Shown here in pieces: positions 59,297 through 63,753 of a stretch of 64,000 nt of DNA. The position numbers and the translations under genes are program-made. This DNA is from Chitinophagales bacterium (lineage in GTDB: Bacteria; Bacteroidota; Bacteroidia; Chitinophagales; Chitinophagaceae): NCBI GenBank assembly GCA_031425835.1, contig JANPKD010000028.1:12551-76550 (forward strand), written 5' to 3'. The notes under the pieces are model-generated. The model saw only the letters and a list, made by a program, of their open reading frames with translations. It was not told where the DNA came from and ran no database searches. Every line of letters starts with the position of its first letter. The stretch's first letter is position 1.

Positions 59297-61477
59297 TTAG
59301 TAAGCCAACAATTTTTTTAGCCGTTCTTCAACCATAGTTGCGTTCGGCAACATAGCTGCTTCAAGGCCCATATTCAATGGCACCGCGGGTAAATTAAGTG
59401 CACCCAGTACATCAACCGGCGCATCTAAAAATTGAAAACAGTGTTTTGAAATGCGGCCCGCTAATGCTTCGGCAAAAGAATTGTTTTGTTGTTCTTCGGT
59501 TAACACCAAACATTTGCCATGCTTTTTTACGGTTGCAAATACAAGTTCTTCATCAAGCGGAAATAAAGTTCTTAGATCAACAATTTCTACGCGGCCCGTT
59601 AATTCATTTTTTGCCGCGGCTTTGGCCCAATACACTCCCATACCATAAGTAATTACACAAACGCTTTCACCACTTGCAACCAAATCGTTTTCAGCTTGCA
59701 AAACAATGTTTGCTTTACCAAACGGCAGTATATAATCGGCGGATGGTTCAATGGTTCTTGCCTCTTCGGTACCAGGCACTTTGCTCCAGTACAAACCTTT
59801 GTGCTCCAGCATCACCACCGGGTTGGGGTCGTAATAAGCGGCTTTCATTAGCCCTTTCATATCGGCGGCATTGGATGGATACGCTATCTTAATTCCTTTG
59901 ATGGAAAGCAAGGTGGTTTCAATGCTGCCGCTGTGATATGGTCCGCCGCCACCATAGGCACCAATGGGTACACGAATGATTGTTGATACAGGAAATTTTC
60001 CGCAGGTGAGGTAGCAGGATTTTGAAATTTCTGTTACCAACTGGTTGAAGCCGGGATAGATGTAATCGGCAAATTGCACTTCTACTATTGGTCGTAAACC
60101 TACAGCACTCATGCCCACCGTTGATCCGATGATATACGCTTCCTGTACAGCAGTATTAAAAACCCTGTCGTCGCCAAATTGTTCGCCTAAAGTTGCTGCT
60201 TCACGAAACACACCGCCAAGGCGTTTACCCACATCCTGCCCATACAAAACACATTCCTTATGTTCCTGCATTAATTCACGAATGGCAAAAAGTGCGGCAT
60301 CAACCATCATCACCTTTTCTTTCCCGGTACCATTTGTTGCCGGAACTCTTTCTCCCCTCTCTTCTGTAACCGGTGTAGGGGCAAAAACAAAATCGCTTAC
60401 GGTATCAATGGCAGGTTCTTTTGCGGCAACTGCTTTCTCAAATTGTTGTTTAATTTCTTCTTTCACTTCTTCATCCACCTGTTGCAAATAGGCCTCACCA
60501 AAATCGGCAGCAATCGCCTGCCTGAACTTTGGGAACGGGTCTAACCGTGCATGTTTGGCAAGATCCTCATCACTTCTGTAAAATTCCTTTCGCACACCAC
60601 TTGTATGGTGATTGAGCAGACAACATTTTGCATGAACCAACCAGGGTTTTCCATTTGCCCGCACATGGTTAATCACCTTGCGCATGGTGTGATAGCTCTC
60701 AAAAAAATCAGTGCCATCCACACGTATTTTGTTCAACCCTTTAAATCCTTCTGCATATTCAAATGCATCCATGGCTCTGCCTTCCTCAGCCGACACACTA
60801 ATACCCCATTCATTATCCTGCACCAAATAAATTATGGGCAGTTGTTTTAAAACAGCAAACTGTAAAGCCTCTGCTACTTCTCCTTCTGTAATTGATGCAT
60901 CGCCTAATGAACAAACAACAACAGGGGCCCCAGCATCCGGCCCCCCCACCCCCCAAAGGGGGGATTTGCCACCGCTCAGACCCTCGCTTTTCGGAGACCC
61001 AAATTCGTATGATGCCGCATCATGTATAAGTGTGGGCTGTGTGTTGGAAATTTCCCCCTTGGGGGACAGGGAAGCCTTGTATTTTAGTGCCTGCGCCACA
61101 CCTGTTGTAGGTATCACCTGCATACCTGTTGCACTGCTTTGATGAATGATTTTTGGTTTGTCTTCCTCCAAAGAATTGGGGTGCGAATAATAACTTCTGC
61201 CACCGGTAAAAGCATCATCGGCTTTTGTAAGCAACTGCAACATTAACTGGTACGGTGTATAACCAAGGCCGAGCAACATACTTTCGTCGCGGTAGTATGG
61301 GCTAACCCAATCTTGTGCTTGCAAGTTGAACGCGGTAGCCAACTGAATAGCCTCGTGACCGCGGGAGGTGGAGTGGACATATTTGGTGATGGTTCTGTTG
61401 GCCTCGAAAGTTTCCGACATTCGTTGTGCAGCCACCATCAACCGATACGTTTTCAACAATAGGTTTCTCTCAATCAT
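59297..61477 (-). CDS. Fused alpha/beta E1 component of a 2-oxoacid dehydrogenase (TPP-dependent)
   Basis: The N-terminal alpha-like half carries the TPP motif SLGDASITEGE...VQDNEWGIS. The C-terminal half has transketolase-pyrimidine and C-terminal domains (GQDVG..GGVF, FADYIYPGFNQ). It contains an in-frame palindromic insert, described in the findings. Confidence 0.85.
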   Translation of the reverse strand: MIERNLLLKTYRLMVAAQRMSETFEANRTITKYVHSTSRGHEAIQLATAFNLQAQDWVSPYYRDESMLLGLGYTPYQLMLQLLTKADDAFTGGRSYYSHPNSLEEDKPKIIHQSSATGMQVIPTTGVAQALKYKASLSPKGEISNTQPTLIHDAASYEFGSPKSEGLSGGKSPLWGVGGPDAGAPVVVCSLGDASITEGEVAEALQFAVLKQLPIIYLVQDNEWGISVSAEEGRAMDAFEYAEGFKGLNKIRVDGTDFFESYHTMRKVINHVRANGKPWLVHAKCCLLNHHTSGVRKEFYRSDEDLAKHARLDPFPKFRQAIAADFGEAYLQQVDEEVKEEIKQQFEKAVAAKEPAIDTVSDFVFAPTPVTEERGERVPATNGTGKEKVMMVDAALFAIRELMQEHKECVLYGQDVGKRLGGVFREAATLGEQFGDDRVFNTAVQEAYIIGSTVGMSAVGLRPIVEVQFADYIYPGFNQLVTEISKSCYLTCGKFPVSTIIRVPIGAYGGGGPYHSGSIETTLLSIKGIKIAYPSNAADMKGLMKAAYYDPNPVVMLEHKGLYWSKVPGTEEARTIEPSADYILPFGKANIVLQAENDLVASGESVCVITYGMGVYWAKAAAKNELTGRVEIVDLRTLFPLDEELVFATVKKHGKCLVLTEEQQNNSFAEALAGRISKHCFQFLDAPVDVLGALNLPAVPLNMGLEAAMLPNATMVEERLKKLLAY
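60938..61075. repeat. Inverted pair of REP-like modules lying in frame inside the E1 gene
   Basis: CCCCCCAAAGGGGGG (60949-63) and CCCCCTTGGGGG (61054-65) hairpins. The left module CCCCCCAAAGGGGGGATTTGCCACCGCTCAGACCC aligns with the reverse complement of the right module CCCCCAAGGGGGAAATTTCCAACACACAGCCC. The central palindrome ATGATGC-C-GCATCAT is at 61009-23. Confidence 0.6.
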
Positions 61478-62429: not shown

Positions 62430-63005
62430 TCATAGCCTTATTTCAACATTGTTGATTTTGCTCATTGCATTTTGCATCCCACTAGTGGCAAATGTTTCAA
62501 TAGCGTCAACCGAAATATCAATTTTCTTCTTCACTAACGGTTCTTCAGCAGCCAGCCATTTGCTTAACACAAAATCTGCCTGGCGTCCTTTTGGAAAATC
62601 GTTTCCTACACCAAATCTCAACTTAGCATACTCCGTTGTTTCCAAGGTTTCCTGAATGCTGCGCAACCCATTATGCCCCGCATGGCTGCCAGCGGCTCGT
62701 AGCCTGATTTTTTCCAGTGGCAGCGCAATGTCATCAACAATCACCAACAGATTTTGTATTTCAATCTTCTCTTTATCCAGCCAATACTTTACAGCTTTAC
62801 CACTTAGGTTCATGTAAGTAGTTGGGCAAACGCAAATAAATATTTTCCCTTTCCATCTTATTTCCGCGGTGTATGCAAGTCTGTCCTGCTTTAAAATGCC
62901 GCCATGTTTTGTAACAACAGCCATAACTACATCAAAGCCTATGTTATGCCGGGTATGGGCATACTCGGCACCAACATTTCCTAAGCCAGCTATTAAAAAT
63001 TTCAT
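62430..63005 (-). CDS. pth: Peptidyl-tRNA hydrolase
   Basis: MKFLIAGLGNVGAEYAHTRHNIGF, YMNLSGKAV and GSHAGHNGLRSI. The start is moved to the ATG at 63005. The ORF-track extension runs through the rplY tail repeats in another frame. Confidence 0.93.
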   Translation of the reverse strand: MKFLIAGLGNVGAEYAHTRHNIGFDVVMAVVTKHGGILKQDRLAYTAEIRWKGKIFICVCPTTYMNLSGKAVKYWLDKEKIEIQNLLVIVDDIALPLEKIRLRAAGSHAGHNGLRSIQETLETTEYAKLRFGVGNDFPKGRQADFVLSKWLAAEEPLVKKKIDISVDAIETFATSGMQNAMSKINNVEIRL

Positions 63006-63096
63006 GGCTGCAAATATACAGAGGCAGGTGGGCAGCCTGCAGTGCATAAAAAAATCCTCTCTGCAAAAACAGAGAGGATTACACTTAAAAAAGTAT

Positions 63097-63753
63097 TTAC
63101 TTTTTGCCCGCAGCTTTTGCTGGTGCGGCTTTAGCCGGAGCAGCAGCAGCCGTTTTAGCCGGAGCAGCAGCAGCGGTTTTTGCTGGTGCCGTAGACTCTT
63201 CCTGGCGCAATGCACGGGTTGTAACTATTGATACAATTGGAATGCGGGGTGAGTTGAGCACCTCGTAATTATCAACCTTAACGTCCTGTACACGCAGGTT
63301 CTCGCCAATTTCAAGCTTATCAATTTCTACTTCAATTTGTTCTTTCAGGTACTTTGGAAAGGTTTTTACTTTCAGCGATTTCATCTTAGTTACCATACGG
63401 CCACCAGCTTTTACGCCAGCCGCAGCGCCGATAAACTTTAAGGGAATTTGGGCGATGATTTTTTTGTCATCCACCAATTCCAGCAAGTCCACATGCAGCA
63501 AGTCATCACTTACTTTATGAAACTGCAGGTCTTTTAAAATGCAACGATAGGTTGTTCCATCAACCGTAACATTGGCTAATTGGAAATTTGGTGTGTAAAC
63601 CAACGACTTAAAAGCCTTGGCCGGAGCGGAAAAATTAATTTCCTGCGCACCCCCGTAAATTACACCAGGCACCATTTCCTGAGAGCGAAGCTGGCGGGTG
63701 GCTGACTTGCCATGTTCGGTCCTCAGTTGTCCTTCGATCGTAATTGTCTTCAT
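63097..63753 (-). CDS. rplY: 50S ribosomal protein L25 / general stress protein Ctc, with an Ala/Lys-rich repeat tail
   Basis: RTEHGKSATRQLR...VPGVIYGG L25 core plus the Ctc beta-barrel domain. The tail APAKTAAAAPAKTAAAAPAKAAPAKAAGKK is encoded by a 2 x 24-nt tandem repeat at 63131-63178. Confidence 0.92.
   Translation of the reverse strand: MKTITIEGQLRTEHGKSATRQLRSQEMVPGVIYGGAQEINFSAPAKAFKSLVYTPNFQLANVTVDGTTYRCILKDLQFHKVSDDLLHVDLLELVDDKKIIAQIPLKFIGAAAGVKAGGRMVTKMKSLKVKTFPKYLKEQIEVEIDKLEIGENLRVQDVKVDNYEVLNSPRIPIVSIVTTRALRQEESTAPAKTAAAAPAKTAAAAPAKAAPAKAAGKK

Follow-up and report, generated by a model that had tools for sequence, protein, structure and literature searches.

An in-frame palindromic segment in a Chitinophagales E1 dehydrogenase gene is probably a decayed member of a Bacteroidota element family with long forms that encode a putative DUF559 nuclease

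We analysed a 64,000-nt stretch of DNA from a Chitinophagales bacterium (assembly GCA_031425835.1, contig JANPKD010000028.1, positions 12,551 to 76,550; hereafter the window), in which the minus-strand gene at 59297-61477 encodes a fused E1 alpha/beta thiamine-diphosphate-dependent 2-oxoacid dehydrogenase of 726 aa, identified from the listing of open reading frames (ORFs) and from Pfam. Within this gene, and on the same strand, lies a palindromic short element of 138 nt, or 46 codons, at 60939-61076. We read this segment as, in all probability, a decayed and nuclease-less copy of a family of insertion elements that live inside the protein-coding genes of Bacteroidota. The segment belongs to a family whose copies are dispersed in other genes and other genomes, it is in frame with its host, and its relatives decay and collapse by internal deletion; moreover, long forms bounded by the same ends carry an ORF for a predicted DUF559 nuclease of the Vsr-like PD-(D/E)XK type.

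The element is delimited by its inverted arms and by homologous elements in orthologous genes. One pair of arms (60951-60982 and 61034-61065) spans 32 nt at 75% complementarity, and a longer pair (60939-60972 and 61043-61076) spans 34 nt at 71%. An initial annotation of the window, made from the sequence alone, had described two mutually inverted modules with G/C hairpins around a central palindrome, and this architecture is confirmed, with the hairpins CCCCCCAAAGGGGGG at 60949-60963 and CCCCCTTGGGGG at 61054-61065 and the strandless palindrome ATGATGCcGCATCAT at 61009-61023, the last being private to the window copy and missing from other E1 inserts, whose centres differ. Likewise upheld, by ORF translation and Pfam, is the in-frame position of the segment in the fused E1 gene, between GVAQALKYK and VVVCSLGDASITEGE, where it is read as ASLSPKGEISNTQPTLIHDAASYEFGSPKSEGLSGGKSPLWGVGGP. 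The gene-distal terminal module (60939-60966, minus strand; GGCCCCCCCACCCCCCAAAGGGGGGATT on the plus strand) is intact and matches the family consensus exactly. The gene-proximal one (61048-61076, minus strand; GGCTTCCCTGTCCCCCAAGGGGGAAATTT in gene orientation, translated ASLSPKGEI) is degenerate against the perfect left module, GGCCCCCCCACCCCCCAAGGGGGGATTT, of the E1 element at L001 (L numbers denote fetched loci), and keeps a 5-bp hairpin. Between the modules are two minus-strand subfamily motifs shared with other copies, both given here in gene orientation: TCCAACACACAGCCC (61034-61048), which codes SNTQP and is common to the E1 inserts of L001 and L002 and to copies in other genes of L055, L057 and L103, and GAAAAGCGAGG (60982-60992), which codes KSE and recurs in L001 and, with one mismatch, in L055. 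At its right end the window copy departs by one frame from the family-typical PPLGGGGA reading, its intact module being translated KSPLWGVGG in a minority frame of the family. Because of this offset, the 16 extra bases that follow the module probably restore the frame and would represent a compensated frameshift; they form a minus-strand junction segment (60923-60938) between the intact module and the VVVCSLGD strand, code (P)DAGAP, include GGGGCCCC, and are absent from L001 and L124.

The palindromic feature exceeds chance: the pattern C5-N2-5-G5 occurs a single time in the window, in the element, against 0.14 occurrences expected from shuffles. The element has a G+C content of 58.7%, compared with 44.8% in the rest of the E1 gene, has no stop codon in the gene frame and in a single frame of the plus strand, the other four being interrupted, and folds as RNA at -69.8 kcal/mol (z = -2.4). 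As no terminator-like site was found on the gene strand within it, a reading as an intrinsic terminator was rejected. The initial annotation had asked whether the insert forms a surface loop, and the prediction is in favour: an AlphaFold model built with 38 close homologues, poor overall, gives residues 137-180 as unstructured coil with a predicted local distance difference test (pLDDT) score of 25-33. The element is best read as translated into a disordered Pro/Gly/Ser loop of about 46 aa, its translation being deduced from the intact frame.

Comparison with orthologues identifies the segment as a lineage-specific insertion, as the initial annotation had supposed. In most of the best 120 orthologues, the loop between GVAQGIQY.. 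and PVVxCSLGD measures 13-17 aa, and the 56 aa of the window protein correspond to about 9 in Thermus E1 alpha (1um9); about 30 of the 120 carry 28-67 aa at exactly the loop that holds the window insert, and many of these long loops share the motifs NTQPSL, SLKSE and PPLGGGG with it. On a neighbour-joining tree for which the loop was masked out, filled orthologues repeatedly alternate with empty ones, in a topology so poorly resolved that the number of gain and loss events is not countable from it. Homologous elements occupy the same loop in L001, L002, L124 and L126. Between L124 (filled) and L123 (empty), which are 86.8% identical at the DNA level, a 138-nt element, GCCCCCCTGCC...GGGGGGGC, stands with sharp boundaries in place of a loop of about 45 nt, so that the event at E1 was a replacement and not a simple insertion; it could reflect co-conversion. 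In a second pair, L126 (filled) and L125 at 89% identity, L125 has lost 126 nt inside the element and retains the scar KSPQSPGGAGA (approximately 1486-1530 of that locus), from which it follows that a loop of normal length in E1 is in some cases what is left of a collapsed element and not the ancestral state. The E1 element of L001, on a 5.68 Mb contig, has perfect 27-nt inverted ends, GGCCCCCCCACCCCCCAAGGGGGGATT ... AATCCCCCCTTGGGGGGTGGGGGGGCC, and has CCA(A/G)CACACAGCCC and GAAAAGCGAGG in common with the window copy, the centres of the two being unlike. L002 (GCA_013327885.1, filled) and L123 (GCA_014163555.1, empty) are both labelled BT320 and were considered as a polymorphism within one strain; this was rejected, since their E1 proteins are 83% identical over the full alignment and the two must be different organisms despite the shared label.

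The same loop shows a second kind of variation. The ancestral-type loop of L123 (approximately 1466-1510) consists of 7-nt periodic repeats, GGCAGTA GTCAGTA TGCAGTC GGCAGTA, and in other E1 loops the 7-nt repeat is probably GGCAATT, as deduced from protein sequence; some E1 orthologues have 7-aa periodic expansions such as QLTIDNE (repeat-type loops in P0005, P0013, P0045, P0041 and P0120). By virtue of these repeats and expansions the loop is hypervariable even without a palindromic element, and a heptanucleotide repeat within the E1 coding region could permit frameshift switching.

To place the window copy in its family, we scanned one genome per species with the exact pattern CCCACCCCCC-N2-3-GGGGGGATT, which returned at least 120 stretches, with 129 modules among the matches listed; the module and pair counts that follow refer to these listed matches. 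The terminal module, of about 27 nt, reads G-C7-A-C6, a loop of 2-3 nt, G6 and ATT; modules start C(A/G)GCCCCCCC, and the symmetric termini extend to C(A/G)GCC...GGC(T/C)G. All listed matches are from Bacteroidota (among them Chitinophagaceae, Ferruginibacter, Lacibacter, Flavisolibacter, Chitinophaga, Paludibacter, Prevotellaceae, Flavobacterium, Draconibacterium and Petrimonas) except two, in a planctomycete and a Streptomyces, both of which have atypical flanks. Within stop-free ORFs of at least 150 aa lie 122 of the 129 modules (95%), compared with 84.3% of random 27-nt windows from the same loci (p = 3e-4). Being built of C and G runs, the module is open in all six frames and always codes a Pro/Gly-rich linker. 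A single frame, GGT GGG GGG GCN giving PP(L/S)GGGGA, accounts for 79 of the 129 (61%; chi-square p = 1e-38), a bias that would be expected if the copies descend from an in-frame element bearing an ORF. About 32 modules lie no more than 30 codons from an upstream stop and are N-terminal extensions or possibly 5' leaders.

Inverted pairs fall into a short class of 100-200 nt (about 44 pairs, with peaks near 100-110 and 136-160 nt), 11 pairs of 200-420 nt and 12 of 460-580 nt, and about 54 modules are lone, in that they have no partner within 800 nt. The host ORFs form 56 similarity clusters. Pairs are found inside RumA (L073), a GH43-like protein (L063) and a histidine kinase (L025), and lone modules in the GAD-domain loop of AspRS (L085), in PrmC (L019, L051) and at the N-termini of DHFR (L050) and an aminotransferase (L116). 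Two alpha-2-macroglobulin-like genes (L084, L121) contain three modules each, a pair and a lone module 30-40 codons downstream, which points to repeated hits or local duplication within one host protein. The SNTQP subfamily, to which the window copy belongs, recurs in the alpha/beta linker of a paralogous E1 gene of F. longurius BT320 (L057), in a GH43-like gene (L103) and in an exporter gene (L055). In the literature searched, mostly without subscription journals, we found no description of the family, of the module sequence or of a link between DUF559 and in-frame insertion, and a 2024 review of MITEs (transposable elements of the miniature inverted-repeat type) does not mention Bacteroid*; the family is apparently undescribed, in keeping with the initial annotation, which knew of no Bacteroidota case.

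The modules share a further regularity. In each, a pyrimidine run is followed by a loop and then by a purine run that complements it; after a short spacer comes a second purine run, which mirrors the first in every variant, with 37 informative modules in mirror and 0 in direct-copy-only arrangement. Examples are CCCCTCC/GGAGGGG/GGGGAGG, TCCCTCC/GGAGGGA/AGGGAGG and CTCCCCC/GGGGGAG/GAGGGGG, and the arrangement is seen, among others, in L017, L018, L037, L047, L055 and the intact window module at 60939-60966. A mirror-image third run is inexplicable by Watson-Crick pairing, and hints at the arrangement that an intramolecular purine-motif triplex, or H-DNA, would require. A distinct but related hairpin repeat, CCCTCTC-loop-GAGAGGG followed by TTGGGGTGAGGC, occurs several times in L010, L067 and L043 (6428), and may represent a sister family with a different third run.

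Beyond what the initial annotation had described, the family has long members, in which the space between the modules is taken by a predicted endonuclease. The largest host cluster, with 23 members among the matches listed, is not a host family, because what its members share is an inserted segment of about 130 aa, which matches DUF559 in Pfam (E = 1e-35) and the endonuclease-like protein 3hrl in the PDB (E = 6e-21). In a survey of PD-(D/E)XK proteins, DUF559 falls into a group that also contains Vsr and I-Bth0305I, a homing endonuclease of a group I intron (PMC3424549). By tblastn over the fetched loci we found 16 DUF559 segments, of which two, at 34% identity, are distantly related and depart from the usual arrangement, and 14 are close to the query (56-100% identity) and all retain an IEVDG..H motif. 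Thirteen of these 14 have a module on the left and another on the right and are read through both, without interruption, in the frame of the host; the remaining one (L081) is cut short where its locus ends. The long forms measure 460-580 nt, and their hosts are MetG, at one site in seven loci, MetH in two loci, an apparent ribonucleotide reductase, of unconfirmed identity, in two further loci, and others. Pfam identifies DUF559 and MTES_1575 as the only domains in the long inserts, with no Hint/intein domain, and Rfam yields nothing credible on four carrier loci, with sub-threshold miRNA-like chance matches only; by these searches neither the long forms nor the short pairs are recognisable as inteins or self-splicing introns. 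The closest database relatives of the inserted DUF559 segments are mostly free-standing proteins of 120-140 aa, and recorded fusions involve MetG, MetH, MoCF-biosynthesis, IspG and hydrolase domains. Both free-standing DUF559 genes that were inspected have module-like sequence on either side. In L128 (1300-2000), a DUF559 cassette with its own start and stop and with variant modules separates the genes for the alpha and beta subunits of a 2-oxoacid:ferredoxin oxidoreductase; the upstream gene has its end within the left module and the downstream gene its start immediately ahead of the right module, an arrangement repeated in L129 and L130.

These observations are consistent with the following history. 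An ancestral element would have consisted of two inverted modules of about 27 nt around a DUF559 ORF, fused in frame with a host protein; the nuclease would break DNA, and repair would copy the element into the site. Deletion of the ORF would then give the short pairs of 100-200 nt, and lone modules would likewise be left without it. At the E1 gene, the element would have replaced an ancestral loop of about 15 aa just before the strand with the GD motif that binds thiamine diphosphate, and would share the transcription and translation of the gene and appear in the protein as about 46 disordered residues, one of its modules having decayed and the frame at its other end having been repaired. That the short forms derive from long ones through ORF deletion we hold with moderate confidence; by eye, the interiors of the E1 inserts resemble the long-form ends of L006 on both the left and the right. 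The mode of spread, by DUF559 breaks and recombinational copying in a homing-like manner with occasional moves to new sites, is put forward with low confidence, and is suggested by same-site occupancy, patchy distribution and loop replacement. The window copy would by now be immobile and a roughly neutral passenger.

Several results weigh against this history or parts of it. The host genes of the listed matches form more than 50 clusters, more than classical site-specific homing predicts, and no target motif or cleavage-site logic is evident at the insertion sites. In MetG, insert-insert identity tracks host-host identity, which suggests mostly vertical inheritance and long persistence. At the E1 loop itself no long form came to light: a chimeric E1-DUF559 protein query returned plain E1 only, and a metagenome scan for the right junction returned five stretches, namely four E1 genes, all with short forms, and one chance match. 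Beyond the modules, the E1 short elements and the long-form ends of L006 have only short motifs alike, as judged by eye. A collection of viral contigs, scanned with phages in mind as possible vectors, gave 0 exact module matches. The expectation of the initial annotation that module copies would be found elsewhere held for related genomes and other genes but not for the window, in which mismatch-tolerant patterns and short-word BLAST found neither the element nor its modules a second time. Finally, translation of the element is deduced from its open frame and not from an observed product, and the structure model of the E1 protein is poor (mean pLDDT 58.6).

We also advance, as a tentative proposal that we consider possible rather than probable, that the family represents a new class of selfish DNA, in which a DUF559 gene propagates in frame inside host proteins without an intron or intein. 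The C/G-run modules would serve both as structure-forming DNA or RNA ends (a hairpin with a mirror third run, capable of triplex formation) and as frame-independent Pro/Gly linkers that make the insert tolerable, and the nuclease-less pairs and lone modules would be decay products scattered across Bacteroidota proteomes.

The explanation that competes best with a nuclease-bearing family is a classical MITE, in which the short pair is moved in trans by a conventional transposase that recognises the inverted ends, the DUF559 ORF being cargo or a passenger. We consider this unlikely and yet a real rival, should there be a transposase that we have not seen. Terminal inverted repeats with the symmetric termini described above, a size of 100-200 nt and the many host genes all fit it; furthermore, we know of no PD-(D/E)XK nuclease that carries out strand transfer by itself (compare TnsA of Tn7), which counts in its favour, nor of the DUF559 nuclease fold acting as a transposase. 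On the other hand, no direct repeats that would mark a target-site duplication flank the 14 complete elements, an absence that tells against our preferred reading as well; no transposase gene lies between modules in the 120 loci listed, DUF559 being the sole ORF between the ends; and random transposition would not be expected to produce the single-frame bias. With no duplication found and no transposase seen in the listed loci, the family does not fit a classical MITE well, its inverted ends and small size notwithstanding. MITEs that fuse in frame with ORFs are on record, namely intragenic ERIC (enterobacterial repetitive intergenic consensus) sequences, Anabaena MITEs and Nezha, and such elements are mainly intergenic, produce target-site duplications and trace to the transposases of insertion sequences (PMC10969869, PMC3184786). 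The present family resembles them as short, non-autonomous elements with inverted ends and occasional translational fusions, and differs in that 95% of its listed copies lie in ORFs, in the absence of duplication, and in having a PD-(D/E)XK nuclease as its sole linked ORF.

Quite improbable, in our view, is that the element is kept for the benefit of the host, as a hairpin or triplex in DNA or RNA or as a Pro/Gly linker selected for translational pausing, mRNA stability or interdomain linkage, with a functional insert in E1. Such selection would account for the conservation of exact 27-mers across several orders, for the covariation of the three runs, which keeps the hairpin and the mirror third run (37 to 0), and for the frequent position of modules right before hydrophobic strands at the start of a domain. 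It is difficult to reconcile with the patchy presence in close orthologues, with copies that decay and collapse, one of the window modules itself being degenerate, and with an association with a nuclease ORF that is typical of selfish elements.

An intervening sequence absent from the mature protein, through intron-like removal with pairing of the modules, ribosome skipping as in mitochondrial bypass elements, or protein splicing, is more improbable still, so that we give it very little weight. The two ends can indeed pair as a long stem, and inserts of 150-195 aa within essential enzymes such as MetG and MetH might seem to call for removal; however, the host frame is open through both junctions in every short and long copy examined, which RNA removal or bypass would not require, and the Rfam and Pfam results above show neither an intron family match nor a Hint/intein domain. 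Last, a native low-complexity loop grown by slippage, its likeness to sequences elsewhere a convergence of G/C-run composition, would suit a loop that is hypervariable without the element, with 7-nt repeats in the empty state and other expansions in some orthologues, but is effectively refuted by 27-nt ends identical to the 129 listed copies dispersed in unrelated genes, by internal motifs shared with copies in other genes and by the sharp boundaries of the filled/empty pair.

Among known systems, the nearest in behaviour is that of the Rickettsia palindromic elements (RPEs), dispersed palindromic repeats of about 100-150 nt that sit in frame in unrelated housekeeping genes, according to the summary of Ogata et al. 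2000 in PMC10969869. The elements described here are similarly palindromic, dispersed, in frame, translated with the host and tolerated in loops. The resemblance to RPEs proposed in the initial annotation thus holds, given the favourable outcome for insertion relative to orthologues, for module copies elsewhere and for the predicted surface loop; a hairpin-forming palindrome, an in-frame insertion and dispersed copies are all present, the dispersal being over related genomes and not within the window. They differ from RPEs in belonging to another phylum with no known sequence relation, in their C/G homopolymer ends that code Pro/Gly in all six frames, and in having lone 27-nt modules and long DUF559-bearing members. 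To our knowledge no enzyme has been linked to RPEs, and the C/G homopolymer composition and the phylum make homology to the RPE-1 to RPE-10 consensus sequences unlikely. In its behaviour the element is RPE-like, but it should not be classed with RPEs, given the different phylum, the different ends and the family's link with a nuclease.

A second likeness is with homing endonuclease genes of the EDxHD type, for which I-Bth0305I provides the precedent of a Vsr-like fold (Taylor et al. 2011, in the account given in PMC3424549). In both cases, as far as that account extends, the same conserved position in a housekeeping gene is taken by an ORF of the Vsr/DUF559 clade in many species, the occupancy being patchy and the copies prone to degenerate. 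Same-site patchy occupancy is observed here at the E1 loop and at the single MetG site in seven loci; the endonuclease ORF is present in the long forms and absent from the window copy. Known homing endonuclease genes reside in introns or inteins or are free-standing, whereas the present ORF forms an in-frame fusion in which no splicing element was detected, and the family has inverted hairpin ends, miniature derivatives and many target genes.

G/C-rich hairpins that invade the coding regions of relatively A+T-rich genomes are another parallel, found in the mitochondrial GC clusters, double-hairpin elements and translational bypass elements reportedly described by Paquin et al. in 2000 and Lang et al. 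in 2014. The bypass elements disrupt the frame, the ribosome skips over them and they belong to an organelle, whereas the present family keeps the frame and is bacterial; we know of no nuclease-carrying long form of the mitochondrial GC or bypass elements. Repetitive extragenic palindromic (REP) sequences and bacterial interspersed mosaic elements, mobilised by REP-associated tyrosine transposases, are extragenic and bear a GTAG or CGTC tag (PMC3733652). Like the present modules, they are short palindromes rich in G/C, found alone or in inverted pairs. The name "REP-like" given in the initial annotation is nevertheless a poor label, since REPs are extragenic while 95% of the listed modules lie in ORFs; nor do the modules carry either tag, starting as they do with C(A/G)GCCCCCCC.

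In-frame selfish palindromes have been regarded as largely a peculiarity of Rickettsia, and they are found here across a large phylum of free-living bacteria, together with a candidate enzyme, which makes directly testable how such elements move and why proteins tolerate them. The family adds or replaces loops and linkers in core enzymes (E1 dehydrogenases, MetG, MetH, AspRS and DHFR) and can mislead gene callers as well as checks of protein length against orthologues. In its ends nature offers a case of sequence with acceptable coding in any of the six frames, and the covariation of the mirror repeats hints that DNA or RNA triplexes may form there and have a biological role.

The host protein itself matches E1_dh (PF00676), Transket_pyr (PF02779) and Transketolase_C (PF02780) in Pfam. 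Flavisolibacter and other Chitinophagaceae supply its orthologues, which are 73-78% identical and are named 2-oxoisovalerate dehydrogenase E1 or alpha-ketoacid dehydrogenase alpha/beta in the databases. Many E1 calls on long contigs, returned by the chimeric query (P0167, P0208, P0216, P0219, P0222 and P0231), end at 230-300 aa with aberrant C-termini; the breaks sit elsewhere in the gene, far from the element, so that a reading of these fragments as genes split by the element was rejected, and they are probably frameshift errors of long-read assemblies. The gene order L25, Pth, FAA hydrolase, E1 is common to the window, L001, L002 and L123. Ribosomal protein L25 (window 62430-63215) ends in a low-complexity C-terminal tail with AAPAKTA repeats, and the Pth ORF as listed (63097-63753) begins with a long upstream extension, LLLLRLKRLLLLRLK, which is this tail repeat read antisense, so that the real start of pth probably lies further downstream.

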